From assembly GCA_027334715.1 (NCBI GenBank), contig DAHWUG010000001.1, positions 211,322-275,321 of the forward strand: a stretch of DNA of 64,000 nucleotides. Reading direction: 5' to 3'. The notes beneath the pieces were generated by a model. That model had not been told where the DNA came from, did not search any database, and worked only from the letters and a program-made list of their open reading frames with translations. Positions 1,317 through 50,762 of the stretch are shown here, piece after piece. Source of the DNA: Nanobdellota archaeon. Lineage in GTDB: Archaea > Nanobdellota > Nanobdellia > Pacearchaeales > GW2011-AR1. The stretch's first letter is position 1. Each line of letters opens with the position of its first letter. The translations under genes were made by a program, and so were the position numbers.

Positions 1317-1402
1317 AGGAAGTGAAAAAACATAAGGAGCAGGATAATACAAGCAGGAAAAGCAAAAGAAAAATTTAAATAGTATCAATTGATATTATTA
1401 AA

Positions 1403-1989: not shown

Positions 1990-2038
1990 TAGTTTATATC
2001 CTAATTTCTATGAATTTTCCTGCTGATCGCAGACAGGT

Positions 2039-2118
2039 ATGACTGGAGAAACTGGGAAAACACCCTTGTTTCACAGAATGAGACAAAGATGCCTTTGATT
2101 GAGAAGAAATAGGAAAGA
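2039..2118. repeat. cassette-boundary repeat copy R1 (~80 nt)
   Basis: gcagacaggtatgactggagaaactggg...cacagaatgagacaaagatgcctttgattgagaagaa; about 85-90% identical to the copies at 3277 and 4421. Confidence 0.8.
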
Positions 2119-2188
2119 GTAGAGGGAAGACTAAATTAATGCATTAATAGAAAACTTTAAAAAGTATTTCTTATTATAATACATTAAT

Positions 2189-3023: not shown

Positions 3024-3029
3024 TTTATA

Positions 3030-3281
3030 ATGAACAAAAACAGTAAAAAAACTAATATTTTAATTAGAAAAAAGCTTATTGGCGAAATAAGAAAATCGGG
3101 CATAAAAAGAATTAACCCCCAATCTATTTTTTTCTTGGATTCGTATATATTAAAAAAATTAAATGGAATTTTTAAAATCGCGAAGGATGAGCTTATAATC
3201 CAGGGAAAAGAGACACTAAATCCAAAGGATATAAAGAGAGTTTTAGATGCAGCTAAAAAAGAAGATTCTTTTGAAGTATGA
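3030..3281 (+). CDS. histone-fold (archaeal histone-like) small protein
   Basis: IRKSGIKRINPQS...GKETLNPKDIKRVLD parallels archaeal histone RI.K.AGAERVS...GRKTI..EDI. Confidence 0.4.
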   Translation: MNKNSKKTNILIRKKLIGEIRKSGIKRINPQSIFFLDSYILKKLNGIFKIAKDELIIQGKETLNPKDIKRVLDAAKKEDSFEV

Positions 3282-3348
3282 CTGGAGAAACTGGGAAAAT
3301 ACCCTTGCCTCACAGAATGAGACAAAGATGCCTTTGATTGAGAAGAAG
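3277..3348. repeat. cassette-boundary repeat copy R2
   Basis: begins at the stop codon of the upstream ORF (gtaTGActggagaaactggg...gagaagaag). Confidence 0.8.
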
Positions 3349-3412
3349 TGAGAAGAAAATATTTGTATATTCAATGGGAAAATATATAAACTACAGTTTA
3401 CATATGTAAACT

Positions 3413-3961
3413 ATGGTAAATCTATATAAACAAAAGTTAACAGTTCTTCAGCAGGAGATTTTAAGATTGTTGTTTATAAAAGCAGGAAAATCCCTAAATC
3501 AAAGACAGATTGCAAAAATTCTTGTAGTAACGCCTCCTGCAGTAGTAAAAGCTCTGCCGAAATTAGAGGAAGAAGGATTAATAAAAACTAATCAGGATAA
3601 GGAATCAAAAAGATGGTCTATATCCCTAAATTCAGACAATTATAAAGCAATCCAATTAAAGAGGGCAGATAATTTAAAGCAAGTTTATGAATCTGGACTG
3701 GCTGATTTCCTCCAGGAAAAATTTGCCGGCAGTTCAATCATATTATTCGGAAGCTATTCTAGAGGAGAGGATATTTTTAATTCAGACATAGACCTTGCTG
3801 TTATTGGCAGAACCAATAAAGACGTCGATTTATCAGAGTTCAGCAAAGCCTTAGGAAGGGAAATTTCTATTAATTTTTATGATTCTTTTGGGGAAATACA
3901 TAAAAATTTAAGAGAGAATATATTTAATGGGATTATGCTTTTTGGGGGCATAGAATTATGA
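3413..3961 (+). CDS. wHTH plus nucleotidyltransferase (MNT-type) protein
   Basis: IILFGSYSRGEDIFNSDIDLAVI; N-terminal HTH-like segment. Confidence 0.6.
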   Translation: MVNLYKQKLTVLQQEILRLLFIKAGKSLNQRQIAKILVVTPPAVVKALPKLEEEGLIKTNQDKESKRWSISLNSDNYKAIQLKRADNLKQVYESGLADFLQEKFAGSSIILFGSYSRGEDIFNSDIDLAVIGRTNKDVDLSEFSKALGREISINFYDSFGEIHKNLRENIFNGIMLFGGIEL

Positions 3962-4398
3962 AAATTGAAAAATTTGGCCAGTTTATTGAGGAAGGCATTG
4001 TTAAAAAACAAATTCCTGATAAATCCAGGGCAACATTTCTTATTAAAGAATCTGAAAGGCGGTTAAACTCGTTAAACGAGAAAATTGAGAAAATAAGGAT
4101 AAAAGACGAGAATGCAAATGATTATGTTGAGAATTGTTATGATATTTTGATGGTATTGGTTAGGGCCAAAATGCTAACAGAAGGATACAATGCTTCCGGG
4201 TTTGATGCGCATAAAGCAGAAGTTGCATATCTCACTGTCCTGGGATTTTCAGAGGCAGATATCCAATTTGCAGATCAGATGAGGGTCTTTAGAAATGGGA
4301 TGCTTTATTATGGAAAAAGGCTTGACAAAACTTATGCTGAAAAAACTATTGAATTTACAAAAAAGATTTATGCTGAATTGATGAAAACTTTCAGGTAA
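3958..4398 (+). CDS. HEPN-domain protein
   Basis: 4-nt overlap with the upstream NTase gene; HEPN-like helical protein with a conserved H in ...GFDAHKAEVAYL. Confidence 0.5.
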   Translation: MKIEKFGQFIEEGIVKKQIPDKSRATFLIKESERRLNSLNEKIEKIRIKDENANDYVENCYDILMVLVRAKMLTEGYNASGFDAHKAEVAYLTVLGFSEADIQFADQMRVFRNGMLYYGKRLDKTYAEKTIEFTKKIYAELMKTFR

Positions 4399-4420
4399 AT
4401 GTTATTTTTACAGGCTCACT

Positions 4421-4500
4421 GCAGACAGGTATGACCGGAGAAACTGGGGGAATACCCTTGCCTCACAGAATGAAACAAAAATGACACTTGTAGAAAAAAC
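4421..4500. repeat. cassette-boundary repeat copy R3
   Basis: gcagacaggtatgaccggagaaactggggg...cacagaatgaaacaaaaatgacacttgtagaaaaaac. Confidence 0.8.
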
Positions 4501-4513
4501 TTAAAAGAATAAA

Positions 4514-4795
4514 CTACTGATATTTTTTCTTGTAAATCTTGTCGTGATGTTCAAAATCTGTAAAAAAAACCGTATCACTTTTTTTGTCATATCTAAAAAC
4601 AAGAACAAAGGAACCTATATGCGTTCTCTTATAATCCTTCATATCGTATCTTAAATTTTTATAATGTTCAATATCAGATACCATTAAAATTTCATCCATT
4701 TTCCCGAGAAGGCTTTCAAAAAGGGTCTTATCTTTTCTCTTTAATTTATCAAGAACTCTATCAAAATTTTTACTATTCTTATAAACTCTTGGCAT
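4514..4795 (-). CDS. RelE/ParE-family toxin-like protein
   Basis: RTHIGSFVLVFRYDKKSDTVFFTDFEHHDKIY matches the RelE/YoeB-type C-terminal signature. Confidence 0.5.
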   Translation of the reverse strand: MPRVYKNSKNFDRVLDKLKRKDKTLFESLLGKMDEILMVSDIEHYKNLRYDMKDYKRTHIGSFVLVFRYDKKSDTVFFTDFEHHDKIYKKKYQ

Positions 4796-4797
4796 TT

Positions 4798-5043
4798 TTA
4801 CCTTTTCTCTATTATTGCTCTAAACTCTTCAATAGAATTAAAGGTTCTTCCATATCCTTCTTTCTCAATTTTCTTCAATTTTTCTATATACTCTGGTCTT
4901 AGCTCTGGCTCTAAAAAACTGTCTTCATAAACCTTTGCCAGCATAGCTATCGCCTGAGATTTGTTCTTAAGTCCGAATTTAGCCTTGACTATATTTAAGA
5001 TTCTGTCCTCATTTTCCCCAAGGTCAATTATGCTTTGTACCAT
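4798..5043 (-). CDS. putative antitoxin, upstream partner of the RelE-like toxin
   Basis: 81 aa ORF ending 3 nt before the toxin gene start. Confidence 0.4.
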   Translation of the reverse strand: MVQSIIDLGENEDRILNIVKAKFGLKNKSQAIAMLAKVYEDSFLEPELRPEYIEKLKKIEKEGYGRTFNSIEEFRAIIEKR

Positions 5044-5173
5044 TTTATTATGAAATATAATGAATTATAATGCTTATAAACTTTTTTATCCACCCTCTAT
5101 TTTATTACTCCCTTATAAGTGACAACAGCCACAAGGTTTAAATAGCCAGATTTTTATACTCAAATATATTAAA

Positions 5174-6889
5174 ATGGCGATGAAAAAAGGATTTTCAGGA
5201 AGAATAAGAAAAGGAATTGCAGCAGCTGCGCTTGGCCTTTCTGTATTAACCGGATATGCATGCAATAATGGTACCGAGCCAAAATACCCACCTGTCGCAA
5301 GCCTTTCTGCTTTCCCTTTATCAGGAATTTCTCCATTGGCAGACACTGTAAAATACAGCTGTGTAAGTCCAAGCAACAATCTGAGAAGCTCAACTTTGTA
5401 CAATAATGGAAATGTTGCTTCAACAAAAACATCGCTTGACACAGTAATAAATTTAACACAGAACGCTTCTTTTAGCTTAAAATGCATAGATAATGATGGA
5501 AAAACAGACAGTATAGGTCCTATAAGTGTCCAGGTTTTGCAACCATCAATTTCACAAACACTTTCCCTTCAAAATTACATTGACCTGCAATCAAATGTAA
5601 ACCTGCAAAACATTTCACAAGCAACAAGAAAAATAACAAAGAATGGAACAGCAATTGATTCTCTTACAAAAACAATAACAGGACCAAACTATCAGCAGAC
5701 TTTAAGCAAGATGCCTTCTGGCCAATATTGCTCTATTGTTGAAGCAGCCAATGTTAAGCCAGATACTGCATGCACAGATGTCCCTGTTTATGCCCCAATT
5801 GTCTACACTGGCAATGTCCAAAACATCTACACAGATGATTCAATAGAAGTTACAATAGACAGTGTTGTAAGCAGAAATCCTGAGGCAAATCCTGTTGCAA
5901 TAACAGGAGTAACGGATTTAGACAGCATTGTGCGCGCGAGCATGAATGGGAACCAGATGAAGATTTTATCTGGAGATTCTCTTGGAAATTATTCAATAGG
6001 AATAAACACAACAACAGCAACAGGAGCAACAAACCAATTTGTCTTCAACGGCAAGATAAGCCCTGACATTGTTGCTTTTTCAAGCATAATTCCCGGTCCA
6101 TGTGATAGTGCAGGAGTATGCCAACCACCTACTGAAGGCGATCAGGTTTATATAGACTCATTGAACGGGTCACCATCAATAAAACTTACTAACGGGATTC
6201 AAAATATTGTGCCTGCTTGGTCGCCTGATGGGACTAAGTTAGCGTATTTCTCTTCCGGAGGAGGTTTATTCTCTGTTTATACTATGAATTCAGATGGGAG
6301 TAGCCAAACAAGATTAGTCCAAACTAATCTTAATACAATGTACCCTTCCTGGTCGCCTGATGGGAAGAAAATTGTTTTTTCTTACACTGATTATTCGACA
6401 AAATCAGGCGATGGAGTAGTTAATACCAACGGAACAGGATTTTTGTCTTTATATGAAGAACCTTACAATGGTTCAGAACCATCATGCTTATTCTTCTCTC
6501 CTGACGGGACAAAAATCGCATTCGAGACATCTTATGGGCAAATAGACATAATGAATCAAGATGGGACAAATATAACTCAATTTACAAGTACTGGGTCGAA
6601 TGGAGGACCTAGATGGCTTCCAGATGGTTCGGGGTTGCTATTCATGTCAAACAGAGACAATCCAAATTTTGATATCTATAAAAAAACATTGACTGGAATT
6701 GTTACAAGATTGACAACAAATGTCGGAGCCATTGACCCAGATATTTTGCAGAATGGGAAAAAGATAATTTATGCTAAGATGGGGAGCTCGCAATTTTACA
6801 TAATAAATGCAGATGGAAGCGGGCCTGTCCAGACAGTTACTGTTCCAGGGCTGGCAAGATTCCCAACTTTCAGGCCAAGAATAAGATAA
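5174..6889 (+). CDS. secreted TolB-like beta-propeller repeat protein
   Basis: N-terminal signal and lipobox-like GYAC; repeated WSPDGTK(L/I)AF and SWSPDGKKIVF blades. Confidence 0.55.
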   Translation: MAMKKGFSGRIRKGIAAAALGLSVLTGYACNNGTEPKYPPVASLSAFPLSGISPLADTVKYSCVSPSNNLRSSTLYNNGNVASTKTSLDTVINLTQNASFSLKCIDNDGKTDSIGPISVQVLQPSISQTLSLQNYIDLQSNVNLQNISQATRKITKNGTAIDSLTKTITGPNYQQTLSKMPSGQYCSIVEAANVKPDTACTDVPVYAPIVYTGNVQNIYTDDSIEVTIDSVVSRNPEANPVAITGVTDLDSIVRASMNGNQMKILSGDSLGNYSIGINTTTATGATNQFVFNGKISPDIVAFSSIIPGPCDSAGVCQPPTEGDQVYIDSLNGSPSIKLTNGIQNIVPAWSPDGTKLAYFSSGGGLFSVYTMNSDGSSQTRLVQTNLNTMYPSWSPDGKKIVFSYTDYSTKSGDGVVNTNGTGFLSLYEEPYNGSEPSCLFFSPDGTKIAFETSYGQIDIMNQDGTNITQFTSTGSNGGPRWLPDGSGLLFMSNRDNPNFDIYKKTLTGIVTRLTTNVGAIDPDILQNGKKIIYAKMGSSQFYIINADGSGPVQTVTVPGLARFPTFRPRIR

Positions 6890-7162
6890 TTTTTTTAGCA
6901 CAGTCTTGTATTCCAAGCTGAACCCAGATTAATTAAAATAAACAATTACAGCATATTACAAATTTTATAATAGATTTTGTTATAAAAAGTATACAATTGT
7001 TTACTGAAAACTCCTTTGGTTTAACAACAAAACAAAATTTATAAATAACAAAACCCTAAAGACTTGATGAAAAAGAGTTGGGTGGAAAGGCAAAATAAAA
7101 TAGAAATAAATGATGCACAAATGGCTGTGTTTATTTTGACAGGTATCCGAGTCTGATCCACG

Positions 7163-7176
7163 GCTGGGCGCCCAGC
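7163..7176. other. perfect 14-bp GC-rich palindrome GCTGGGCGCCCAGC upstream of the pilin-like gene
   Basis: self-complementary 14-mer in an AT-rich intergenic region, ~35 nt before the 7210 ORF. Confidence 0.3.
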
Positions 7177-7209
7177 GCTTAAAATTAAAAATATGCAATA
7201 ACTTTAATA

Positions 7210-8952
7210 ATGATGAAAAAAGAGGGCAGGAAAAGTAAAGTTAGATTTATTTCTATAAACAAATCAGGAGACATTATTCTATCAAAAAAAGGGCTTTCAG
7301 AGATTGTTGCTACATTGATAATAATTCTCGTAACTTTGGTTGCTGTAGGAATTATCTGGGCAGTCATCAGCAACGTCATAAATTCAGGTACACAGCAGAT
7401 TGCATTAAACCAGTATAATGTTGACTTACAGATAACAAAGGCGCAAGTTTCTCCTGACAATACAAGCCTGCTAGTCTATGTGAAAAATGCAGGCCAGGGA
7501 GACTTTACAGGGATGGATTTTGTCTTCAATAACAGAACGAGCTCCCAAGTAATAAGGGTTAACTCAACGATAGTTCCTTTGCAGGAAAAAAGCTTCAGTT
7601 TCACATTTTCTGATATAAATATCACAAACCTGCAGACGATTTCAGTAGCTCCTTTTACAAAGATAAATTCTGGTCCGGGAACAGTTGGAGCAACAACAAG
7701 CACATTTGACATATCAAAGATTGTTGCGGCAGTTGTGACAGGTGGTCCGCTATTTCAAAAAGAGACTAGTTTTGAGAAAGGAGGCTTTTCAGGAGTTCAG
7801 TTAATAAGCTATTCTGTTTCCAGCGGATCAAACGGATTGCCAGTTTATCCTGAATTCAAAAATGCAACAGTAGATCCGCTTGATGTTTCTCCAGGCCAAA
7901 ACCAGACATACATTACAGTTGTTTATTCTCCTTACAATGTTACAAATGTTACTTCATTTACAGAACTGGACCACAGCAACCTTTCATTGACTTTCATAAA
8001 AATAGCAGATAACAATGCAGGAACATCAGTATGGTCTGTGAATTGGACAGCAAATGACACGCATCAGACAACATACTTGACATGGATTACTGCTGTAGAT
8101 TCTGCAGGAAACAAAAACAAACTTTCTCTTGGCTGGGCAGATACTGTTGATTGTGCTGGTTTGATCCCAATGACCGCAACAGGACCTTATGTAATAACTC
8201 AATCCTGTACCCTTACTACTAATGAAGTCGCGGGATTATCTTCTGGAACATTAACAATAGGCTCAGCAACAGGTCCAGTTACAGTTACTTTAAATTCTGG
8301 AACAAATCTTCTTACTGCAGGAGGGTTCAGCTTTTATAACTCTTCTTCTTCTTTGCAATTAGTCCAAACAGGAACACTCCCTTCAATTCATCCATCAGGC
8401 TACTTGTATTATTATGACACAGATGGCGATGGCTTTGCGAACAATGCAACAATGGTCTACAGCACAACTGCCCTTGGGGCAGGGTATACTTTAGCTACAA
8501 ATATTTTGGCAACTTCTGACTGCGACAACAACTTTTATTCAACTACATTGGGGGGCTGCGGGCTGTATAATGGAGTACACTCAGAAAGTCAGTGCACAAG
8601 CGCTGGAGGAACATTTTACACTAATGGTTTATCAGCTCCTAAAACAATAGGAGACTGCAAATTTTCAGGCAGCTCATGTCTTGGCGGCTGGACTGCTAAT
8701 GGGGATACTGCAACAAGTGCTAATACGTTCCTAGGAGTAGTTAGTCTTTCAAACCCATTTGCAAAAACAATAAGCGGGCCTCTTAATCTTGCATGCGCTT
8801 GCACTTCATGTACAACAGGAAGCCATGCTTTCCCAGGTTCTGGACAGGAAACATGCACATACCTGAATTGTAATCCTACTAATACCTGTCCTGCTCCTTC
8901 TCCTTCTTCTGGTACATGTTATGCTACTATTTCATATGTTGGATGTTATTAA
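7210..8952 (+). CDS. surface protein with an archaeal class-III (type IV pilin-like) signal peptide and a Cys-rich C-terminus
   Basis: KGLSEIVATLIIILVTLVAVGIIW hydrophobic N-terminus typical of archaeal pilin/flagellin-like prepilins. Confidence 0.5.
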   Translation: MMKKEGRKSKVRFISINKSGDIILSKKGLSEIVATLIIILVTLVAVGIIWAVISNVINSGTQQIALNQYNVDLQITKAQVSPDNTSLLVYVKNAGQGDFTGMDFVFNNRTSSQVIRVNSTIVPLQEKSFSFTFSDINITNLQTISVAPFTKINSGPGTVGATTSTFDISKIVAAVVTGGPLFQKETSFEKGGFSGVQLISYSVSSGSNGLPVYPEFKNATVDPLDVSPGQNQTYITVVYSPYNVTNVTSFTELDHSNLSLTFIKIADNNAGTSVWSVNWTANDTHQTTYLTWITAVDSAGNKNKLSLGWADTVDCAGLIPMTATGPYVITQSCTLTTNEVAGLSSGTLTIGSATGPVTVTLNSGTNLLTAGGFSFYNSSSSLQLVQTGTLPSIHPSGYLYYYDTDGDGFANNATMVYSTTALGAGYTLATNILATSDCDNNFYSTTLGGCGLYNGVHSESQCTSAGGTFYTNGLSAPKTIGDCKFSGSSCLGGWTANGDTATSANTFLGVVSLSNPFAKTISGPLNLACACTSCTTGSHAFPGSGQETCTYLNCNPTNTCPAPSPSSGTCYATISYVGCY

Positions 8953-18679: not shown

Positions 18680-21600
18680 ATGGAAGAAAAAAAAGAAAGG
18701 AATGAATATACTGCATCTGAAATAAAAGTGCTTGAAGGCCTTGAAGGAGTAAGAAAAAGGCCTGCAATGTACATAGGCTCGACAGGAAAAGACGGCTTGC
18801 ATCATCTGGTTTATGAAGTTGTTGACAATTCTGTTGATGAAGCACTTGCCGGTTACTGTAAAAAGATAAAAGTCACGATAAACAAAGACGGCTCTGTCAC
18901 AGTCGATGATGATGGAAGAGGAATTCCAGTTGACATGCATCCTATCCTGAAGATTCCTGCTGTTGAAGTTGCATTAACAAAACTTCATGCAGGGGGAAAA
19001 TTTGACAAAAAAGCATATGTTATCTCAGGAGGTTTACATGGGGTTGGTGTAAGCGTCGTGAATGCCCTTTCAAAGAAGCTGATTGTTGAAGTAAAGCGAG
19101 ATGGAAGAGTATATACACAGGAATATTCAAAGGGAATAACAAAAACAAAACTAAAAGAGGGGGCAAAGGCAGAAGGAACAGGAACAACAGTAACTTTCTG
19201 GCCTGACGAGGAAATATTTTCAACAGTTGTTTTTGATTACAAGGTTCTTGAAAACAGATTCAGAGAAATAACCTTCCTTAATCCTGGCCTGAAAATACTT
19301 CTTGAAGATGAAAAGAGCGGAAAGAAAGAGGAATTTTATTCTTCAGGAGGGCTGATTGAGTTTGTAAAATGGCTAAACAAATCAAAAGAAGCCCTTCATA
19401 AGCCAATTTACTTCAAAAAAGAAGTTGACCACAGCGTAATAGAGGCTGCAATACAGTACAACAGCAGTTACCAGGAAAATATTTTCGGTTTTGTCAATAC
19501 AATAAACACAATTGAGGGAGGAACTCATGTTTCTGGCTTCAAGACAGCACTGACAAGGGTAATTAATGATTATGCAAAGAGCAAAGAGCTTCTTAAGGGA
19601 GAATCCTTGCAAGGAGATGATGTGAGAGAAGGCCTTACAGTTATAATCAGCCTAAAAATGCAGGAACCTCAGTTTGAAGGCCAGACAAAGACAAAATTGG
19701 GAAACTCGGAGATGAAAGGGTTTGTTGATTCTGCAACAACGCAAGCTCTGAGTGAATTTTTTGAGGAAAATCCAGGAATTGCAAGAATAATAACTGCAAA
19801 GGCGCTTGATTCTGCAAAGGCAAGGCTTGCTGCAAAAAAGGCAAAAGACCTCGTAAGAAGAAAAAATGCTTTTTCACTCGGAGGTTTGCCCGGAAAACTT
19901 GCTGATTGCTCTTCAAGAAAAACAGAAGACACTGAAATTTACATTGTAGAAGGGGAAAGCGCTGGAGGATGTTTTTCTATGAATACAGAAGTTGCGCTGG
20001 CTGATGGGAGAGATTTGTCTTTCAAAGAATTAGTTGAAGAACACCAACAGGGTAAAACAAATTTTTGCTATACTATAAACAAAAATGGAAGCATTGGAAT
20101 CGAGAAAATAGAAAATCCGAGAATAACTAAATCAAATGCAGAGGTTATTAAAGTCATTCTTGACAATAACCAAGAAATAATCTGCACTTTAGATCATAAA
20201 TTTATGCTTAGGGATGGAACTTATAAAGAAGCGAAACTTTTAACGCGGAATGATTCTCTTATGCCATTAAACAAGAAAATATCTAAAGTTGGCGGGAGAA
20301 TTACAATAGAAGGTTATGAAATGGTCTGGGATCCAAAGAGAAAATGGATATTTACACATATGCTTGCTGATGAGTACAATTTAAGGAACTATATTTATAC
20401 TAATAAACAGAATGAGGTTAGGCACCATATAGACTTCAATAAAAGGAACAATAATCCACGTAATATAACAAGATTAAACAAAGAACAGCACCTTCTTTTG
20501 CATACAGAACATCTAGACAGGACATTACATCGGCAAGATGTTAAAGAGAAAGCCAGACAAGCTCACAGAAATCCTGAATACAGAAAAAGAGTTAGCGATT
20601 GGGCAAAACAACCAGAGATTAAGAAGATGATGTCTGAAAGATCAAGAAAACTATGGGAAAATCCAGAATATAAAAGGAATATAATGGAAAAATATATAAA
20701 ATTTTATAATTCTAACGGAAAATATAGAGAAAATTTAAAAAAGAGATTTTATCAGCAACAGAAGGAATACTGGCTAAATTTAGAGAATAAGAAAAAAGCC
20801 TCAGAAAAACTTAAAAAATTCTTTGAGAAAAATCCAGATACTAAAGAATACCTTTCTAATCTGGCTAAAGAGCAATGGAAAGATGAGTTTCTTTTACTTT
20901 GGAGAAGACAAAAAACTAAAGAGCAATGGACTCCAGAATTTAGAAAAAAAAGAAAAGATTCATATAATCAAACTTATTACAGAAAAACAATAAGTTTAAT
21001 GAAGAGTATTGCTGAACGAGAAGGTAGCTTGAATAACTTTGATAATGTTAGGATTCAAGGCAGAGATAAATCTATACTCAGCCTAAAGGAATTTCAAAAA
21101 AGATTCTTTAATAGAGATAAAGAAGAAATGCTTGAGACTGTTAAAAATTATAATCATAAGATCAAGAGAATTGAGAGATTAACAGAGAGAATTGACGTTT
21201 ATGATATTGAAGTCCCAAACACCCATAATTTTGCCTTGGCTTCAGGTGTTTTTGTCCATAACAGTGCGAAAATGGCAAGAAACAAGGAAATTCAAGCTAT
21301 TCTTCCATTAAAGGGAAAAATCCTCAACGTCGAGAAATCAAGCCCTGTGCGCTCATTGTCAAGCGAGGAAATTGCGAACTTAATAACTGCAATAGGAACA
21401 GGAGTTGGGGAAAATTTCAATGTTGAAAACCTTAGATACAATAAAATAATAATAATGTCTGATGCAGATGTTGATGGGGAGCACATAAAAACGCTTTTGC
21501 TTACTCTTTTCTACAGATTCATGCCGCAGCTGATAGAAAGCTCGCACATTTATGTTGCCCTTCCTCCATTGTACAGGGTAAGAAAGGGGCAGAAAGACCA

Positions 21601-21865
21601 GTATGTTTATACCGATGAAGAACTTAAGAAAGAGGTCAGCAATGTTGATTCAAACAATGTCACAAGATTCAAAGGACTTGGAGAAATGAGCTCTACCCAG
21701 CTATGGGATACGACAATGAATCCAAAAACGAGAAAAATAAAAAAGATTTTCATAGAAGATGCTGTCGAGGCAGACAGCGTTTTCACAATGCTTATGGGAG
21801 ATGACGTGCAGGCAAGAAAGCTTTTCATCCAGGAAAATGCAAAAGAAGCTAATCTTGACATATAA
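18680..21865 (+). CDS. gyrB: DNA gyrase subunit B, containing an intein
   Basis: GyrB ATPase and TOPRIM motifs (LHHLVYEVVDNSVDEA; IVEGESAGG / SAKMARNKEIQAILPLKGKILNVEK) interrupted by a ~431-aa insertion. Confidence 0.9.
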   Translation: MEEKKERNEYTASEIKVLEGLEGVRKRPAMYIGSTGKDGLHHLVYEVVDNSVDEALAGYCKKIKVTINKDGSVTVDDDGRGIPVDMHPILKIPAVEVALTKLHAGGKFDKKAYVISGGLHGVGVSVVNALSKKLIVEVKRDGRVYTQEYSKGITKTKLKEGAKAEGTGTTVTFWPDEEIFSTVVFDYKVLENRFREITFLNPGLKILLEDEKSGKKEEFYSSGGLIEFVKWLNKSKEALHKPIYFKKEVDHSVIEAAIQYNSSYQENIFGFVNTINTIEGGTHVSGFKTALTRVINDYAKSKELLKGESLQGDDVREGLTVIISLKMQEPQFEGQTKTKLGNSEMKGFVDSATTQALSEFFEENPGIARIITAKALDSAKARLAAKKAKDLVRRKNAFSLGGLPGKLADCSSRKTEDTEIYIVEGESAGGCFSMNTEVALADGRDLSFKELVEEHQQGKTNFCYTINKNGSIGIEKIENPRITKSNAEVIKVILDNNQEIICTLDHKFMLRDGTYKEAKLLTRNDSLMPLNKKISKVGGRITIEGYEMVWDPKRKWIFTHMLADEYNLRNYIYTNKQNEVRHHIDFNKRNNNPRNITRLNKEQHLLLHTEHLDRTLHRQDVKEKARQAHRNPEYRKRVSDWAKQPEIKKMMSERSRKLWENPEYKRNIMEKYIKFYNSNGKYRENLKKRFYQQQKEYWLNLENKKKASEKLKKFFEKNPDTKEYLSNLAKEQWKDEFLLLWRRQKTKEQWTPEFRKKRKDSYNQTYYRKTISLMKSIAEREGSLNNFDNVRIQGRDKSILSLKEFQKRFFNRDKEEMLETVKNYNHKIKRIERLTERIDVYDIEVPNTHNFALASGVFVHNSAKMARNKEIQAILPLKGKILNVEKSSPVRSLSSEEIANLITAIGTGVGENFNVENLRYNKIIIMSDADVDGEHIKTLLLTLFYRFMPQLIESSHIYVALPPLYRVRKGQKDQYVYTDEELKKEVSNVDSNNVTRFKGLGEMSSTQLWDTTMNPKTRKIKKIFIEDAVEADSVFTMLMGDDVQARKLFIQENAKEANLDI
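19970..21262 (+). mobile_element. GyrB intein (Cys1 ... His-Asn / Ser+1) with an HNH-like region
   Basis: insertion begins CFSMNTEV right after GESAGG and ends FVHN before SAKMAR; internal HHIDFNKRNNNPRNITRLNKEQH resembles HNH. Confidence 0.75.
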
Positions 21866-42820: not shown

Positions 42821-42956
42821 GCTCACGTGGTCTAACGGCTATGACGCTAGCCTGTCGCGCACGGGAAGGACCAAGGTCCTTCTACGATGACATCTCCTTT
42901 AAGGGATGGCAATGCGCAGAACGCTGGAAACCCGAGTCCGACTCTCGGCGTGGGCG
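42821..42956 (+). tRNA. tRNA-Asp (anticodon GTC) with a ~63-nt intron after position 37
   Basis: acceptor GCTCACG/CGTGGGC, anticodon stem CTAGC...GCTGG, loop CTGTCG, T-arm CCGAG TCCGACT CTCGG; intron contains the hairpin AAGGACCAAGGTCCTT. Confidence 0.7.
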
Positions 42957-43030
42957 ATACACCCAAACTGGGCGTTGGAGAATTCTAAAAATACGCGCTG
43001 GAAATCTAGGACAACAATTCTTAAATAGGG

Positions 43031-43552
43031 ATGAAATATAAAAAAAATATGGTTTATAGTCTTGATATAAATGAAATATTAAAAAAAGTCATGTCTTCTG
43101 AAAGAGGAAAACAAATGGAATTTGAAACATTTCTAGTAAAAAGAAACTTACTCTGGTCTTTTAAGTTAAAAAGCAAAAAAGGCGCAAGAGCACAAGGATT
43201 ATCTCATATAATGACTTCAAATAATCATGGCACTATTATTCTTGAGGATTTTTTAAAATTAGAAACACAGAATAGTGGTTTTGAACCAGACCTTTGTTCA
43301 CTTAAGTGTTGCATGTTCTATGACCTGGGTGCAACTGTTTCTGGAGGAGTTTCTAATCTTGGATATTCTCCTGAAAGAAATGGGCACTTAGTTCACTTTG
43401 GCGTTTCAAAAGATAAAGCTCCAAAGGCTCTGCATTGGTATGTTGATATTGCATGCGGGGTCATGGGAGAATTTTTTAGAGGTTATGAATCTGTAGACTT
43501 AGCTCTTTCTTTGGCTAGAGAAAGAGGTATTGCACAATTTGCCGGACGTTGA
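43031..43552 (+). CDS. hypothetical protein
   Basis: ORF only. Confidence 0.25.
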   Translation: MKYKKNMVYSLDINEILKKVMSSERGKQMEFETFLVKRNLLWSFKLKSKKGARAQGLSHIMTSNNHGTIILEDFLKLETQNSGFEPDLCSLKCCMFYDLGATVSGGVSNLGYSPERNGHLVHFGVSKDKAPKALHWYVDIACGVMGEFFRGYESVDLALSLARERGIAQFAGR

Positions 43553-44091
43553 ATATTATCACAATAATTCTTAAAAAGTATGGTAAAATAAGAGGAACAT
43601 GGCTGGTATAGGTGGTAGTACTGGATTTTAAGATATATTTTAAAGAAAAGTGACACGTTGCCAGAGGGTTTTCAATTAGTAGAAGAATCAAGCAGAAAAT
43701 GTGTTCTAAGATCTTATAGTTATCCTCTTGATGAAGTCTATCCTTTATTTGGTATGACTTCAATTGAAGTTCAAGATTAATTATTCTGAATAGCTAAAAA
43801 TAAAGATGAGATGACAAGAAGGATACATGATTACTTAGAAAGATATGCAAAAGAAAATCTAAAGGGTATGGAAATAAAAGACGGAACTGGTCTTGCTGCT
43901 AAAATAAGGTAGGGAGTGTATTACTTTTAATACAGTTTCTGCATTAACTGATTTTTTAGGAAAAATCAAACAAAAAGTTTTTTAAAGCACTGTAGATATT
44001 AATTATTATATACCCCCCAGGATTGCACCGCAAACCTGGGTTTTATACTCATTTTAGTTAATTTTATTAAGACTTTATCTTTGAATCTTTT

Positions 44092-44640
44092 GTGGGTAAC
44101 AAAGACAGAGTTGCTATTTTTATAGATGGAAGTAATCATTATCATATTGTTAAAGATATGTTTAATGGTAAAATTAGCCCAAACGACTTTAATTTTGGTA
44201 AATTTATCAAATACCTTGTTGGTAATAGGAAGCTTGTAAGAACTTATTATTATTCTGCCCCTTTAGATGCAGCTTTTGACCAAGAAATCTACATGAAACA
44301 GCAGAAGTTTTTTGATAAATTAGGAAGAATACAGAACTTTAAACTTGTTCTTTGCAGAATGCAAAAAGTGAAAATTGACGGAAAAACAGTTTATCAGGTT
44401 AAGGAAGATGACATTCACTTGGCTGTAGATATGGTAAAATTAGCATATAACAATGCATATGACACTGCCATATTGGTTTCTTCTGACGGAGATTTTGTTC
44501 CTGCTGTCAGAGCAGTCAAAGAAGTTGGAAAAAATATCGAAAATATAGGGTTTGAAACAAAATTCTCTTATCATTTAAGACAAGAATGTGACGATTTTAA
44601 AAAATTGAGTAAAAAAGAAGTAAAACTCTTCTTTGATTAA
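44092..44640 (+). CDS. NYN-domain (LabA-like) putative RNase
   Basis: RVAIFIDGSNHYH...RTYYY...ILVSSDGDFVPAV. Confidence 0.55.
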   Translation: MGNKDRVAIFIDGSNHYHIVKDMFNGKISPNDFNFGKFIKYLVGNRKLVRTYYYSAPLDAAFDQEIYMKQQKFFDKLGRIQNFKLVLCRMQKVKIDGKTVYQVKEDDIHLAVDMVKLAYNNAYDTAILVSSDGDFVPAVRAVKEVGKNIENIGFETKFSYHLRQECDDFKKLSKKEVKLFFD

Positions 44641-44789
44641 CCCTATTTCTTTTTTTAGGAATCTAATAAAAAATTATCTATCTTATCTCGACAAAGCTTA
44701 AAAATTCAAATAGCATCAGAGATTTAGCTAATTAGAAATTATAAAATAATAAAACTCAAATCCCACAAAGATAACATAAACATATCTTG

Positions 44790-44804
44790 TCCGGCGTGGG
44801 CGAT
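44790..44804. repeat. copy of the tRNA-Asp 3'-end 13-15-mer (tccggcgtgggcgat); att-like
   Basis: cggcgtgggcgat is identical to tRNA-Asp positions 42946-42958. Confidence 0.5.
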
Positions 44805-44866
44805 GTTATCACTTCTAAATAACATAATATCATAAAGTTTATAAAGTATGATTTTATGGAGAAAAT

Positions 44867-45274
44867 ATGGCAAAAACATTGAGAAATATACTGGCCGGAA
44901 CTGCATTGTTAGGAGCTTTGACTGGATGTAGTCGAGATCAACAATATATAAGTGGACAAGTTACTAAAGAAAATGGTACTGCTGTGAATATTGTTAAGTC
45001 AAGTGGCGCTCTTTTTGGCAATGAATCTATTAAATTTGGAAGTCCAACTTATATTTTAAAAGTACAAACAGATAGTGGTGAATATATAATAAACGTAAAT
45101 GACAGTTGTTATTATCCTACAAGGAAACCAATTCTTGCTTTAGCTGAAGCAATTAAAGTTGGTCAGAGTAGAATTGAGTTCCCCAGACGTTCTCTTTTTT
45201 CTACGGGTTTGAATTATTTTTCACAAGATAAGATAGGTGATGTTCCTAGTTGCGAGATTAGGGTCTTAAAATAA
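44867..45274 (+). CDS. lipoprotein
   Basis: signal peptide with lipobox LTGCS. Confidence 0.4.
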   Translation: MAKTLRNILAGTALLGALTGCSRDQQYISGQVTKENGTAVNIVKSSGALFGNESIKFGSPTYILKVQTDSGEYIINVNDSCYYPTRKPILALAEAIKVGQSRIEFPRRSLFSTGLNYFSQDKIGDVPSCEIRVLK

Positions 45275-45309
45275 TTGTTTTTTCAGAAATATATCCAACT
45301 TCCCCTGCG

Positions 45310-45321
45310 CTCGGCGTGGGC
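45310..45321. repeat. second copy of the tRNA-Asp 3'-end 12-mer (ctcggcgtgggc); att-like
   Basis: 12-nt identity with tRNA-Asp 42944-42955. Confidence 0.45.
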
Positions 45322-45386
45322 CTTGGATATCAGATCCACTAAAAAATTATCACAATAATCTTTATAAATAATATAATTTAGTAATA

Positions 45387-45926
45387 ATGATGCTTGTAAA
45401 AACTTCTGCAATAACTGATGAAACAAGGGAGCACATGAATACTGTTCTTGAGGAAGTATTTGCGCATAAAGAAGGGGAGGGTATACAATCAGTTGTTTCT
45501 GAAGTACTTAATGACAAAGATGTTTTCTTATACTTACTAACTTATCTTAAAACAAATCAAGTTGTTTCTGAAGTACTTAATGACAAAGATGTTTTCTTAT
45601 ACTTACTAACTTATCTTAAAACAAATCAAGGAGTTGAGTTAGGAAGAATGTCTTATTGGGATGATATTAGGGTGGAAGTTCCTTACGGGATAGCAGTTGA
45701 TCAAAGGTCTTATCATCCTAAACTGACTATATTTGAGTATAGTTCTGTAATGGGAAGTGCTGACGAATTAGGATTTTATCCATTTTTACCAAGACGCCAT
45801 GGAACTTTTGCTTATGAAGATTTTCCTACTCCAAAGAATTTTTCTGATGCAGTAAATTTGGTTTTAAAAAATCCAAAAGGAAGTTTAGTTGATTTAAACA
45901 GAATAAAAAAAGGAATTACTTACTAA
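45387..45926 (+). CDS. hypothetical protein with an internal in-frame 69-nt tandem duplication
   Basis: VVSEVLNDKDVFLYLLTYLKTNQ encoded twice (45491-45559 and 45560-45628). Confidence 0.3.
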   Translation: MMLVKTSAITDETREHMNTVLEEVFAHKEGEGIQSVVSEVLNDKDVFLYLLTYLKTNQVVSEVLNDKDVFLYLLTYLKTNQGVELGRMSYWDDIRVEVPYGIAVDQRSYHPKLTIFEYSSVMGSADELGFYPFLPRRHGTFAYEDFPTPKNFSDAVNLVLKNPKGSLVDLNRIKKGITY

Positions 45927-45930
45927 AAAA

Positions 45931-46650
45931 GTGTCAGCAACAAGACCGAGAAAAATAGAAAGCCAGAATACAGTGCAGGGCATTCCATGGATTACGCATG
46001 ATATAGATCAATTTCATTGGTACAGTGATGTAAAACGAAGGAATTCTGGAGATAGGATTAAAGCAATGGATTTTATGAGTGCAGTAAGATTTATGCTACC
46101 TTATTTACCAGGCAGAGATCTTCGTTCTTATGTTGTTGCTGTTGGTAATGGATCTGATATATGTAATGTTTATTTTGTTAGGGTTAATTGGGGTATGGAT
46201 ACTCTTACTGGAAAGTTTCCAGAAGGCACGCATGGACTTTGGAAAGTATTTGATTATAGTGAGAGAAAAAGTGCTGCTGGAAGTAAATTTTATACAGATA
46301 ATCATTATTTAAAAAAATTGAGAGAAAAATTACCAGAGAAACTTGGAAGCATATTTACAACAGACATAATGCCCTTTTTAAGAAGCGGTTATTATCCAAT
46401 GGAATGTGATAGGGTTTATGATTTTGGTTTAGATGGACTTGATAAATTAAGAATGATTGCAAGAAATAGGGAAAAAATAGGGATAGGAGAAAATTTTGAA
46501 ATAAAATATATTCCCCATAAAAAAAATAGTCCAGAAGAAACTGTAATAGTTCTTCCATATGGCAAATGGACAAATTCTGAGACAATTCAATTATTTCCTT
46601 TTACAAAGAGATTTACCTTTGCCTCTGATTTTAATACAAATGCTCTTTAA
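45931..46650 (+). CDS. hypothetical protein
   Basis: ORF only. Confidence 0.25.
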   Translation: MSATRPRKIESQNTVQGIPWITHDIDQFHWYSDVKRRNSGDRIKAMDFMSAVRFMLPYLPGRDLRSYVVAVGNGSDICNVYFVRVNWGMDTLTGKFPEGTHGLWKVFDYSERKSAAGSKFYTDNHYLKKLREKLPEKLGSIFTTDIMPFLRSGYYPMECDRVYDFGLDGLDKLRMIARNREKIGIGENFEIKYIPHKKNSPEETVIVLPYGKWTNSETIQLFPFTKRFTFASDFNTNAL

Positions 46651-46909
46651 TGCCCTCAAAAAAAGGATGTAAAAAGTGAAAATTGACAGGAAAAACATAG
46701 GAAACAATCTTAGATAGTATTATGAAAAGCCGGCATACAAATCTGCAGCCTATTCATGCCGATTTTGGAATAATTTTGATGAAATAAACAGAAATTAATT
46801 GGAGAAAAAGATCTTGAATGGGTTCCTAAAATCTAACTTCCTTTATTTTGAATTAATTCAGAATATACATTTACATACAGAAATGCTTATAAATTAAAAA
46901 ACTGTAAAT

Positions 46910-47254
46910 TTGTTTATGGGATTATTCGGAAGAAAGCCGAACAGAAATGACTTAGTTAAGAAAGTAATTGATTCAGTTACTGCCAAAGGGATAGAAATTC
47001 TTGATGCTCCTCAAGGGGTACCTTTGCTTGGAGGCAAGCCACTGAGTGGATATGAATCATTTCTTATCTCTGGCGTTGGAGATTCTGAAGAGGACTATGG
47101 CACAGCCATAAAGCATTTACTTAATGGAATTAATCGTGAACATCCAAAATATATCTCCTTTATAAAATTTTTACATACTCCTGATGGTCCTTTTGGAAGA
47201 AAAGCCAAAATTTCTGTAAATGGTTATAGGGAAAACCATAATCAGGCCGCCTGA
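46910..47254 (+). CDS. hypothetical protein
   Basis: ORF only. Confidence 0.2.
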   Translation: MFMGLFGRKPNRNDLVKKVIDSVTAKGIEILDAPQGVPLLGGKPLSGYESFLISGVGDSEEDYGTAIKHLLNGINREHPKYISFIKFLHTPDGPFGRKAKISVNGYRENHNQAA

Positions 47255-47710
47255 TTTTTATCGCTTGTTTTGGTCAACCAAAATATTTAAAAAACTCGCA
47301 GAGGGTATATTTTGATATCTAAGGAGGTTTAGATGAAACACAAACACAAAAAGGACGAGGAAGAAAAGAAAGAAAAGGAAGAAGACATGAATGAAGAAGA
47401 TGTGTCTGCTGATGAAGAAGACTCTTCCTTGGAACTTGAAGATACTGAAGACGGAGACTACTAAATTCCTTACCTTTTTTAAGCCTTTTTTATTTTTATA
47501 ATTTATTTTTGACATATTTTAATTCAGAAAGCCCTGTTCTTTTAATTTGAATTGCAGGAGCATAGAATTTGTTGCTTATTCTGAATATGCTTTAATGATA
47601 GGAACCAGGCTTTAACATTTAATTAAAAATGAGAAGAGAGATTTATTACAGGCATCTTTTCGTTTAACTGTCTGTTATACTTAAAATTTATATACATCTT
47701 TTCTTTTTCA

Positions 47711-48649
47711 TTGAAAATGGGCTGGAAATCTGTTCTTGGATATTTGATGGCAATAATGTTGATTGCACTTCTTGCTTTTTACTGGATAGTGCCATTGCAG
47801 AATATAGACTTCGGTGCGTGGTCTTCCGGAGGAAACAGCAATTTCAGCCTTAACAATTCAGCCAATACAAGCATGCAGTTTTACCAAAATATGAGATATT
47901 CTTATACAAATATTTCCTACAGAATAATAAACTGCTCAATAAAAAGAACAGATGACATGAAGACTGCCTTTAGTACAATCCAGAATTTAACCCCGATTAA
48001 GTTCTACCCTGTGCCAAATAATGAACAGATTTCTGTTGCCTGCGATTATGCAACCCAGATCGCGCAAGGAGAACCGGGATATTTTGTTGCGGGCGAGGGC
48101 GGACCGACAAACATCACAGTATCTGGCGATTTTAATGTAATAGAGCACGGAAGCGTACTGCTTCTAAGGGATTCAGCATGCGCCCGGCCAAATATTGCAA
48201 TACACGAGCTTTTGCATGCGCTTGGTTTTAATCATTCTGTAAATCCCAACAACATAATGTATCCTGTAAGCTCCTGCCAGCAAACAATAGGGCAGGATAC
48301 CGTTGACACATTAAACCATCTTTATTCATACCCCAACCTCCCGGACCTCGCATTTGAAAATGTTTCTGCAACAATGAACGGACCTTATCTTAACATGAAT
48401 TTTACAGTAAGAAATGAAGGACTTGTTCCTGCACCTTCATCAGCAGTTAATGTTTATGCAGATGGAAAGCAGGTTTACACGATGCCATTGAACACCCTTG
48501 AAATAGGAGAAGGAAGGCAGATATTCGTAACTAATGTATTTCTTCTACAGAAAAATATAAACCAGTTGAATTTTGTTATTAATGCGAACTTTGAAGAATT
48601 GGACAAAACCAACAATGAAGTGACACTAAACTACAACAATAGCAAATAA
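47711..48649 (+). CDS. matrixin (MMP)-like zinc metalloprotease, membrane-anchored or secreted
   Basis: IAIHELLHALGFNHS (HExxHxxGxxH) followed by a Met-turn NIMYP. Confidence 0.55.
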   Translation: MKMGWKSVLGYLMAIMLIALLAFYWIVPLQNIDFGAWSSGGNSNFSLNNSANTSMQFYQNMRYSYTNISYRIINCSIKRTDDMKTAFSTIQNLTPIKFYPVPNNEQISVACDYATQIAQGEPGYFVAGEGGPTNITVSGDFNVIEHGSVLLLRDSACARPNIAIHELLHALGFNHSVNPNNIMYPVSSCQQTIGQDTVDTLNHLYSYPNLPDLAFENVSATMNGPYLNMNFTVRNEGLVPAPSSAVNVYADGKQVYTMPLNTLEIGEGRQIFVTNVFLLQKNINQLNFVINANFEELDKTNNEVTLNYNNSK

Positions 48650-50436: not shown

Positions 50437-50480
50437 AAATATTATAATAAATGCCTAATTTTAAGGTTTTCTAAGAAAAA

Positions 50481-50683
50481 TCCCCCCACCCAGAATCGAA
50501 CTGGGGATCTATCGGGTTCTGTTTGAATCTGAACCGATTTTTCCGGCTTTTGGGGTTTCATAGTCTTCCTCAACGGAATCTCCACCTTAGAATCAACATC
50601 CTTAAAGGAAGTTGATCGTCAAGGAACCTTGGTTCCTTACGTAATCTACAGCCGATCGCTCTAAACCACTGAGCTATGGGGGG
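50481..50683 (-). tRNA. tRNA-Tyr (anticodon GTA) with an unusually long ~128-nt intron
   Basis: acceptor CCCCCCA/TGGGGGG, D-arm GCTC AGTGGTTTA GAGC, anticodon stem ATCGG...CCGAT with loop CTGTAG, T-arm CCCAG TTCGATT CTGGG; intron hairpin AAGGAACCAAGGTTCCTT. Confidence 0.7.
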
Positions 50684-50762
50684 ATGCTTTAAGAAATCTT
50701 GAAGTATTTTTAAGGTTTGTTATTATTTCTTTCTGCGGATGCATCTTGCTATTCTTTATAAT

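Follow-up and report, generated by a model that had tools for sequence, protein, structure and literature searches.

Copies of a tRNA-Asp 3' end bracket two small gene islets in a DPANN archaeon

tRNA genes are textbook landing sites for foreign DNA. In the genome of a DPANN archaeon of the Pacearchaeota/Woesearchaeota type, a tRNA-Asp gene is followed on the same strand by two short copies of its own 3' end, each behind a small group of genes. This led us to ask whether the two islets entered the chromosome through the tRNA gene, what they carry, and whether the same site is used in related species. Positions (Table 1) are those of the window, by which we mean the whole 64-kb stretch of DNA that was analyzed. 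Repeats bracketing two small islets in this way are the classic footprint of foreign DNA entering a tRNA gene, and the islets are unusual only in their very small size and in the absence of a found integrase gene. We consider it likely that two successive site-specific insertions into the tRNA-Asp 3' end took place, with the tRNA regenerated each time.

Table 1 Features of the tRNA-Asp locus in the window
Feature	Positions	Strand	Remarks
tRNA-Asp(GTC), intron-containing	42821-42956	+	ARAGORN with intron detection; Rfam tRNA model
Exon 1	42821-42858	+
Intron	42859-42922	+	64 nt, position 38/39
Exon 2	42923-42956	+
T-stem 3' strand	42944-42948	+	CTCGG
Acceptor 3' strand	42949-42955	+	CGTGGGC
Discriminator	42956	+	G, followed by trailer AT
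Core copy 1, attL-like, CTCGGCGTGGGCGAT	42944-42958	+	T-stem 3' strand, acceptor 3' strand, discriminator and 2 nt of trailer
Islet 1 (proximal)	42957-44791	+	1.85 kb core to core, between copies 1 and 2
Promoter-like BRE/TATA motif ACAACAATTCTTAAATAGG	43012-43030	+	Ahead of o167; repeat family D3
o167	43049-43552	+	Function without assignment; listed as 173-aa ORF from 43031; three non-self homologs
Second promoter-like motif	43555-43577	+	No ORF of >40 aa after motif
NYN-domain (PIN-like) nuclease	44092-44640	+	182 aa; Pfam PF01936, E=2.2e-28; PADLOC HEC-09, E=2.1e-17
T7 run	44650-44656	+	10 nt after NYN stop, upstream of copy 2
Core copy 2, CGGCGTGGGCGAT	44792-44804	+	13/13 identical to tRNA-Asp 3' end
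Islet 2 (distal)	44805-45309	+	0.52 kb core to core, between copies 2 and 3
Putative lipoprotein	44867-45274	+	135 aa; signal peptide and LTGC lipobox; three non-self homologs
T6 run	45278-45283	+	4 nt after lipoprotein stop, upstream of copy 3
Core copy 3, CTCGGCGTGGGC	45310-45321	+	12/12 identical to tRNA-Asp 3' end
Further variable segment	45322-46900	+	Distal repeat not detectable; island membership uncertain
o179	45387-45926	+	In variable segment
o239	45931-46650	+	In variable segment; family in housekeeping context elsewhere
NYN-gene fragment	46663-46697	+	34 nt; in variable segment
Conserved far-side frame	46910-48649	+	o114, 46910-47254; M10/CARDB peptidase, 47711-48649

The tRNA-Asp gene and the copies of its 3' end

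We recovered the tRNA-Asp gene with ARAGORN only when intron detection was on, and in a small search space its score with the Rfam tRNA model, 38.6 bits, exceeded the threshold of 29. Neither default ARAGORN nor a whole-window Rfam scan detected the gene, which default tRNA finders miss because of the 64-nt intron. ARAGORN and Rfam thus confirmed, with a gene and intron at 42821-42956, the original prediction that the repeated 12- to 13-mer comes from the 3' half of tRNA-Asp.

The tRNA shares 13 nt (CGGCGTGGGCGAT) with copy 2 and 12 nt (CTCGGCGTGGGC) with copy 3. Copy 2 had been placed at 44790-44804; the end and the 13/13 match stand, but the start is 44792, as 44790 takes in two mismatched bases. 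Copy 3 lies on the + strand at 45310-45321, as predicted, and matches at 12/12 positions. The window contains exactly three occurrences of the word CGGCGTGGGC (42946, 44792 and 45312, all on the + strand), against an expected count of 0.22 with up to 1 mismatch; frequent occurrence of the 12-mer had been named as a refutation, and within 64 kb there are only these three copies. When the 10 kb downstream was simulated with a Markov model, the mean number of 12-mer matches to the last 29 nt of tRNA-Asp was 0.0007. We observed two, a number reached in 0/1500 simulations, and the claim that three copies are very unlikely by chance therefore holds. The local GC content, given earlier as 33%, needs correction: it is 35.7% for the window and 29-35% for the islets (0.29-0.36 for islet 1), the variable interval thus being lower in GC.

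The blocks are short, at 12-13 nt, and this is what speaks for a chance recurrence of a GC-rich word, or for slippage without mobile DNA. We give these explanations hardly any probability at all. Chance is already refuted, both by the simulations and by the same phenomenon with different sequences in other species, and against slippage the DNA between the copies is unrelated, gene-bearing sequence and holds no tandem duplicate.

Two further candidates were tried and rejected. As decayed long tRNA duplications, copies 2 and 3 gave P values of 0.36 and 0.94 for upstream-only similarity. A split or partial tRNA gene with a functional 3' half was rejected because tRNA similarity is absent upstream of the 12- to 13-nt blocks and because the tRNA finders are blind to the copies: relaxed ARAGORN and the Rfam tRNA model, even at E<=10, detected neither.

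The likeness of copies 2 and 3 to the tRNA ends at the block edges, and the arms are unrelated. Such sharp edges with unrelated arms fit a recombination core.

In the mechanism that we favor, the tRNA-Asp 3' end would serve as the chromosomal attachment site for site-specific recombination. Each incoming DNA would have brought a short core identical to the T-stem/acceptor 3' strand, and crossover within that core would restore the whole tRNA at the proximal junction while leaving a second core at the distal one. Copies 2 and 3 would then be the distal junctions of two insertions. A later insertion into the rebuilt tRNA would have displaced the earlier insert outward; we infer from this that islet 2, with the lipoprotein gene, came first and is the older, and that islet 1, with o167 and the NYN nuclease gene, came later. 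The insertions were presumably carried out by a tyrosine-type integrase, which may have been lost or may act in trans from elsewhere in the genome.

Cargo of the islets and the search for a recombinase

The predicted 173-aa ORF of islet 1 is present, but its start is most likely at 43049, which yields 167 aa and matches database entry P0001. An NYN domain had been proposed for the second gene and was borne out by Pfam (E=2e-28), and the lipoprotein of islet 2 is kept as putative on a signal peptide and an LTGC lipobox read directly from the sequence. Between o167 and the NYN gene, no decayed partner gene was detected. Each islet gene has a BRE/TATA-like motif of its own ahead of it. That at 43012-43030 may act as a promoter, and ACAACAATTCTTAAATAGG-type motifs also stand ~25 nt upstream of the o167 homologs in L085 and L088. 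With the islet genes intact and promoter-like motifs of their own ahead of them, it is probable that this accessory cargo is expressed. The T7 run at 44650-44656 is likely an archaeal terminator.

Copies 2 and 3 are intergenic and lie just after same-strand genes, and for each of them a short C-run upstream offers a pairing partner (CCCAC...GTGGG and CCC...GGG). Both features would suit copies that are selected, functional tRNA-like signals, such as a minihelix, a terminator or processing sites at mRNA 3' ends. We judge this very improbable. Folding is unexceptional (z=-2.2 and -1.6), the Rfam tRNA model fails to see the copies, and the oligo-T runs that probably end the transcripts lie upstream of them. 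Copies as signals would also leave the insertion/empty-site pairs in relatives unexplained.

The cargo is rare and is found elsewhere at different loci. Homologs of o167 lie in other chromosomal contexts without an adjacent tRNA, which counts against our preferred explanation. On all contigs with o167 or lipoprotein homologs there is only one tRNA, which lies in L088 at a distance of ~6 kb from the gene; the contigs with lipoprotein homologs are only 1.4-1.9 kb long. A free element with the tRNA-Asp exon or the NYN gene was not found in viral contigs.

The absence of an integrase, noted in the original prediction, was confirmed: of the 30 window ORFs scanned, in the islets and elsewhere, none encodes an integrase that Pfam recognizes. 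Searches of the islet ORFs with Pfam, PHROGs, NCBIfam and PADLOC, and of 20 further window ORFs, found no recombinase domain. Among the relatives, the Pfam scan covered cassettes of L007 and L035, and it found no recombinase there either.

A transposon or casposon aimed at tRNA 3' ends could also leave short repeats, as target-site duplications. Casposons produce duplications of 14-15 bp and are able to build tandem arrays. The 12-15 bp repeats in tandem seen here resemble casposon arrays at tRNA genes (PMC4779613; PMC6563490). However, terminal inverted repeats are absent at both islets (P=0.36 and 0.51; P=0.053 for the third possible boundary pair), neither islet encodes Cas1, a polymerase or a transposase, and casposons are much larger than the islets. 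This origin is largely refuted already, and only a very small chance is left to it.

Past copy 3, two candidates in the variable segment were rejected. A second decayed NYN gene at 46650-46900 proved to be no more than a 34-nt fragment. We had also considered o239 as a capsid remnant on weak matches to Pfam GP7 and PDB 8cjz, but the family profile matches nothing in PDB, GP7 is touched by 1/26 family members, and with a confident model (pLDDT 92) Foldseek gave neither a capsid nor any other match.

The same site in related genomes

Four related species (L005, L006, L007 and L012) have the frame S10-SerRS-tRNA-Asp ... M10 peptidase in common with the window. In these the M10 peptidase is 55-76% identical, and a weak homolog of o114 lies upstream of it in L007. 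The interval between tRNA-Asp and M10 is hypervariable: it holds different DNA in each species, and the six ORFs of the window's interval have no counterpart in the four syntenic loci.

The repeat follows the local tRNA sequence. In L006 the tRNA-Asp acceptor is different, and the downstream copy is of its own version, CGGTTGGGGCGT, versus CGGCGTGGGCGAT in the window. Islet 2 is the positional counterpart of a 552-bp interval in L006, and the cargo is unrelated. The same tRNA-Asp has a 15-nt copy at +1000 nt in L097, a 19-nt copy at +100 in L101 and degenerate fragments in L100. Comparison with related genomes, suggested earlier as a check, further gave two occupied/empty pairs, each bounded exactly by the repeat: L101 versus L098, with 92% identity over 215 nt of flank, and L097 versus L012/L099. 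A reading of the 118-nt L101 insert as the decayed 3' part of an intron-bearing tRNA-Asp was rejected (P of about 0.2).

Across 57 tRNAs at 81 loci, 11 copies of the 3' end lay downstream on the same strand; the seven control classes gave only 1-4 apiece (P=3e-4). The flank after copy 2 shows a moderate in-register likeness to the L006 post-tRNA flank and the L100 post-insert flank, and none that is significant to L012/L097; on this flank evidence, there is moderate support for reading islet 1 as an insertion. For the window's own species we found no empty site, L001 and the Logan contigs being of the same population. Breaks in the Logan contigs were rejected as a sign of strain variants, since these contigs are 100% identical to the window and so uninformative.

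The original prediction of att-like duplications by successive integrations is thus supported by the sharp cores, the repeat that tracks the tRNA, the occupied/empty pairs in relatives and the variable interval.

It is also conceivable, but in our estimate unlikely, that the islets are miniature non-autonomous cassettes, integrase-less and using an integrase encoded elsewhere, on an integron-like platform anchored on a tRNA gene, rather than wrecks of larger elements. In detail, and just as doubtfully, each would carry a promoter along with one or two genes for accessory, toxin or defense functions, and all would be inserted, stacked and exchanged at the tRNA, whose end would stand in for attI/attC. 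Every inter-copy interval is 0.07-1.85 kb, with no recombinase in those scanned against Pfam, and L035 has three successive cassettes of ~1 kb each, carrying NIF3, Fic and a ParE pair. In addition, an arm, CAACTTCCCC, precedes copy 3 and is common to the distal copies of L097 and L006. In all three the layout is stop codon, T-run, AACTYCCC, 5-9 nt and core, and this conserved arm goes with differing cargo and with a core matching each species' own tRNA. However, these three are the only arm examples, and since all of them occupy the orthologous site, the arm could be due to common descent. It is missing from copy 2, and an arm profile found no members beyond the three seed sites in 1.34 Mb, on which count the arm was also rejected as a dispersed repeat. 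Neither an integrase acting in trans nor a circular form of a cassette was found.

Relation to known elements and significance

The locus is a known type of feature in a little-studied lineage. Archaeal integration prefers tRNA 3' ends, and acceptor-end att sites of 11-14 bp are known from SNJ2 (13-14 bp) and Msmi-Pro1 (11 bp) (PMC8371274). As here, direct repeats of 11-14 bp leave the tRNA intact at one junction, and those of SNJ2 are identical to the extreme tRNA 3' end. However, SNJ2 and Msmi-Pro1 are complete proviruses with their own tyrosine integrase, whereas the islets are 0.5 and 1.85 kb long and without recombinase. Their host belongs to the DPANN archaea, which that review of archaeal tyrosine recombinases never mentions (PMC8371274). 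Thaumarchaeal integrated elements have att sites with a median of 17 bp and a minimum of 8, 57% of them are in tRNA genes, and they form arrays by re-use of one integration site (PMC6563490). The cryptic ones resemble the islets in their short att sites, tandem occupation of one site and cargo that is accessory or of unassigned function (PMC6563490), but these elements, at 2.6-98 kb, are larger and are defined by carrying an integrase. That all intervals seen here (0.07-1.85 kb) fall far below the described archaeal integrated elements (2.6-98 kb) counts against our preferred explanation, as do the negative searches for an integrase, for a free element and for an empty site in the window's own species. 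In a Thermococcaceae survey, a complete and a partial tRNA copy stand at opposite ends of inserted DNA, as here (PMC9897764). Those repeats are ~44 bp, around elements of 9-23 kb, and long enough to be miscalled as tRNA genes, unlike the 12- to 13-nt fragments described here, which tRNA finders do not see.

Integron cassette arrays without integrase (CALINs) are reported in archaea, including Nanoarchaeota, with no tRNA link reported (PMC9668308). They share with the islets tandem cassettes of ~0.5-1 kb, often with toxin-antitoxin or defense cargo, no adjacent integrase and possible mobilization in trans. Integron cassettes, however, are set apart by attC hairpins, in which the core is conserved, and they typically lack promoters; in our locus the tRNA 3' end separates genes that each have a BRE/TATA-like motif. 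Direct reading of the junctions found no GTTRRRY of the attC core RYYYAAC ... GTTRRRY at either boundary, the unexceptional junction folding gives no support for an attC-like hairpin, and the 30 ORFs scanned across the 64 kb include no tyrosine recombinase that could be an IntI. In bacteria, cis-mobilizable elements are integrase-less DNA between att sites, in tandem and movable by a related element's integrase; their accretion is described in the ICE systems of Firmicutes, where the partner ICE is known. The islets are alike in being integrase-less DNA in tandem at one att-like site, but they have no known partner element.

Two surveys of integration in archaea both leave out the DPANN archaea. 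They have tiny genomes and are host dependent, hence the interest in the route by which they gain accessory and defense genes. Our data show tRNA 3' ends to be recurrent insertion hotspots in Pacearchaeota/Woesearchaeota-type genomes, with remarkably small inserts. Because the intron hides the tRNA from default annotation and scars of 12-13 nt are too short for island finders, such islets will be under-reported in these lineages. The integrase-less islets of 0.1-1.85 kb may be decayed relics or cassettes moved in trans; cassettes mobilized in trans, if that is true, would be a new gene-capture platform.

The tRNA-Asp gene and copies of its 3' end

Judged by its sequence, the source of the window is a Pacearchaeota/Woesearchaeota-type DPANN archaeon, whose SerRS shares 77 to 83% identity with those of four MAGs of that type. 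Directly upstream of the tRNA-Asp feature are the genes for ThyX, ribosomal protein S10, and SerRS. Neither default ARAGORN nor a whole-window Rfam scan reported a tRNA there. ARAGORN with intron detection found tRNA-Asp(GTC), and the Rfam tRNA model scored 38.6 bits against a threshold of 29 in a search limited to the local region. Thus, the gene that the original prediction had called by eye is right. Its 3' terminus consists of CTCGG (T-stem 3' strand), CGTGGGC (acceptor 3' strand), the discriminator G, and AT.

We observed CGGCGTGGGC three times in the 64 kb, always on the + strand; the tRNA end is repeated twice downstream, as claimed. The 10 kb downstream contained two twelve-mer matches, compared with a simulated mean of 0.0007, and 0 of 1,500 runs gave at least two. 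Chance recurrence, which had been called very unlikely, is thus excluded. When the alignment was extended around the copies, resemblance to the tRNA broke off sharply where the blocks end (P=0.36 for copy 2 and 0.94 for copy 3, upstream side only).

The window's tRNA-Asp and tRNA-Tyr both escape default tRNA finders, and their introns (64 and 129 nt) share a module of ~45 nt, AAGGAxCCAAGGxTCCTT..ACGAT..CTyCCTTTAAGGrATG. Among related loci (L numbers), some tRNA-Asp genes have related introns (L005, L012, L099, and L100) and others have none (L006, L007, L092, L093, L095, L096, L098, L101, and L102). These introns look like a mobile or recently gained or lost family.

Features of the window and of related loci
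Feature	Locus	Positions	Strand	Remarks
tRNA-Asp(GTC)	window	42821-42956	+	64-nt intron at 38/39
tRNA-Asp intron	window	42859-42922		shared module
tRNA-Tyr intron	window	within 50480-50684	-	shared module
Variable block	window	about 42957-46900		approximate extent
Copy 2	window	44792-44804	+	13/13 nt shared with tRNA-Asp end
Copy 3	window	45310-45321	+	12/12 nt shared with tRNA-Asp end
o179 duplication	window	45491-45628		perfect 69-nt tandem (23 codons)
o239	window	45931-46650		distal segment
NYN-like fragment	window	46663-46697		lone, 34 nt, just past o239 stop; 91% identical to NYN gene 44356-44389
sR52-like match	window	47354-47414		o114-M10 spacer; archaeal C/D-box sRNA model, weak (27 bits, below threshold of 50)
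Toxin-antitoxin-like run	window	115-4800		dense succession of pairs, including putative HEPN/nucleotidyltransferase-like pairs (by eye); adjoins window start, so that any upstream tRNA anchor would lie outside
InsA-like ORF	window	115-1254		InsA-like zinc ribbon, PD-(D/E)XK nuclease domain
ParE-like pair	window	1403-1989		resembles pair of third L035 cassette
GyrB ORF	window	18680-21865		1061 aa; putative intein by eye (CFSMNT...VHNS)
tRNA to conserved flank	L100	5177-5285		~104 nt
Cassette array	L035	~4990-8080 (reversed coordinates)	reverse	tRNA and three 3'-end copies
Intergenic repeats	L085	1095-1279, 2325-2504, 3538-3564		~180 nt, ahead of successive small genes

Genes between the copies

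Between the tRNA and copy 2 (islet 1) lie an ORF of unknown function, most likely starting at 43049 to give 167 aa (o167), and a nuclease whose predicted NYN domain was borne out by Pfam (E=2e-28) and which also matches HEC-09, a PADLOC candidate defence family, at 2e-17. A single ORF, of 135 aa and with a signal peptide of lipoprotein type, occupies the interval between copies 2 and 3. Each islet gene has, ~25 nt ahead of it, a motif (yACAATAATkCTTAAAAA) that we infer to be an archaeal BRE/TATA promoter and that is also found ahead of homologous genes at other loci. Because an oligo-T run comes after the stop codon of every islet gene, ahead of the copies, copies 2 and 3 are probably not cotranscribed with these genes. 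That position also counts against the copies being tRNA-like RNA signals, as do their unexceptional folding and their escape from the tRNA model at E<=10; this explanation is disfavoured.

The claimed absence of an integrase held: no recombinase domain was found in the islet ORFs (Pfam, PHROGs, NCBIfam, and PADLOC) or in 20 further window ORFs (Pfam), the rest being evident housekeeping genes from a by-eye reading of translations. Terminal inverted repeats were absent at the islets, and neither Cas1 nor a transposase was found in them, which speaks against their descent from a transposon or casposon. Integron membership fails on IntI (among the ORFs scanned), the attC consensus, and promoterless cassettes.

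Homologs of o167 and of the lipoprotein are rare: each protein has three nonself ones among 5.8 billion clusters. Those of o167 occupy differing chromosomal places with no adjacent tRNA, which fits itinerant accessory genes; mobility is not thereby proven. One is among the L085 genes, whose intergenic repeats have no tRNA nearby and form a cassette-like architecture of another sort.

In the distal segment, o239 belongs to a family of ~35 proteins. Weak hits to capsid proteins were lost under profile and structure tests. Its AlphaFold model (pLDDT 92) gave no significant Foldseek match in PDB (best E=0.1, TM ~0.2), and it is possibly an undescribed fold. Strain L001, otherwise 99.99% identical, lacks the o179 duplication (156 versus 179 aa). 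Around the NYN-like fragment there is no wider NYN homology.

The locus in relatives

SerRS is followed by tRNA-Asp in the nearest four species as well (L005, L006, L007, and L012), with an M10/CARDB peptidase (M10) 1.3 to 4.8 kb downstream. Because the contents of this interval differ in each species and tblastn with the six window ORFs of the interval gave no match there except a weak o114 homolog beside M10 in L007, we place the variable block approximately from the tRNA through the distal segment, with syntenic genomes not otherwise sharing its genes. Its GC content is 0.29 to 0.35, below the 0.35 to 0.44 of the surrounding conserved genes. The acceptor stem of tRNA-Asp differs in L006, where the 3' end of that gene (CGGTTGGGGCGT) is repeated 552 bp downstream, past one unrelated ORF. 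The sequence of the repeat thus tracks that of the tRNA beside it.

Scanning metagenomes with the 3' exon of tRNA-Asp yielded eleven additional loci. The tRNA end is copied at +1000 in L097 (15 nt) and at +100 in L101 (19 nt). Past the distal copy, the L101 flank matches the sequence right after the L098 tRNA (92% over 215 nt), and that of L097 matches the L012/L099 post-tRNA flank (87% over the 38 nt available before the contig ends). These are pairs of occupied and empty sites, bounded exactly at the repeat. In L100, the stretch between tRNA and flank has three degenerate tRNA-end-like fragments (GGGCGT, CGGTCGGGGCGT, and GGGCGTGGG) and no intervening gene, as though DNA had been inserted and lost there more than once. 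Beyond copy 2, the window flank is in register (within 1 to 3 nt) with the L006 post-tRNA and L100 post-insert flanks and is the best nonself match to the L006 flank among ~285 control upstream regions; its matches to L012 or L097 were not significant. This is moderate evidence for islet 1 being an insertion.

For 57 tRNAs at 81 related loci, 1.18 Mb in total, we then looked for exact matches to the tRNA ends that were 11 nt or longer and outside other tRNA genes. Same-strand downstream 3'-end copies numbered 11, compared with 1 to 4 in each of seven classes that served as controls (5'-end, upstream, or reverse-strand copies). The binomial P is 3e-4, although not all cases are independent, and all intervals were 0.07 to 1.85 kb. 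The three successive L035 copies (15 to 17 nt, ~1 kb apart) have NIF3/DUF34, Fic, and a ParE toxin-partner pair as cargo; no recognisable recombinase was found by Pfam in L007 and L035 cassette ORFs. At three of four L035 sites (tRNA end, copies 1 and 3), the core precedes a T-rich spacer and partial inverted complement (CCCGCC..GTACTT), a hairpin-capable unit of ~50 nt. Two different species (L009 and L022) have a 16- to 20-nt tRNA-Ser(GGA) 3'-end copy 67 to 68 nt downstream, with a reverse-complement T-loop fragment between. Being conserved, this copy is suggestive of more than a random scar; the tRNA-Ser of the window itself has none like it.

Proposed stacked insertions and their precedents

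Our results confirm the observation, and the interpretation first proposed is supported by the repeat following the local tRNA and by the occupied/empty pairs. In this best-supported reading, the tRNA-Asp 3' end would serve as the attachment site, each insertion would recombine inside the short core and regenerate the tRNA, and successive insertions would stack, the older ending up distal. The islets may be decayed relics of larger elements. There are also hints that they are small cassettes for which movement is provided in trans: a common lead-in arm is present at window copy 3 and at the L006 and L097 distal copies (stop codon, T-run, AACTYCCC, 5 to 9 nt, core), yet these sites have differing cargo and cores matching their own species' tRNA, and a dead scar under vertical inheritance would not go on matching a diverging tRNA. 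However, the arm is seen in three examples only, all at one orthologous site, is absent at copy 2, and gave no further members when its profile was searched against 1.34 Mb.

There are precedents. In Thaumarchaea, the median att site length is 17 bp and arrays form by site re-use (PMC6563490), and integration is recognised to leave tRNA fragments behind (PMC9897764). tRNA-anchored insertion scars are already a known kind of feature. Described elements span 2.6 to 98 kb and carry an integrase, whereas the window islets, of 0.5 and 1.85 kb, are unusually small and have none; we found no prior description of such scars in this lineage.
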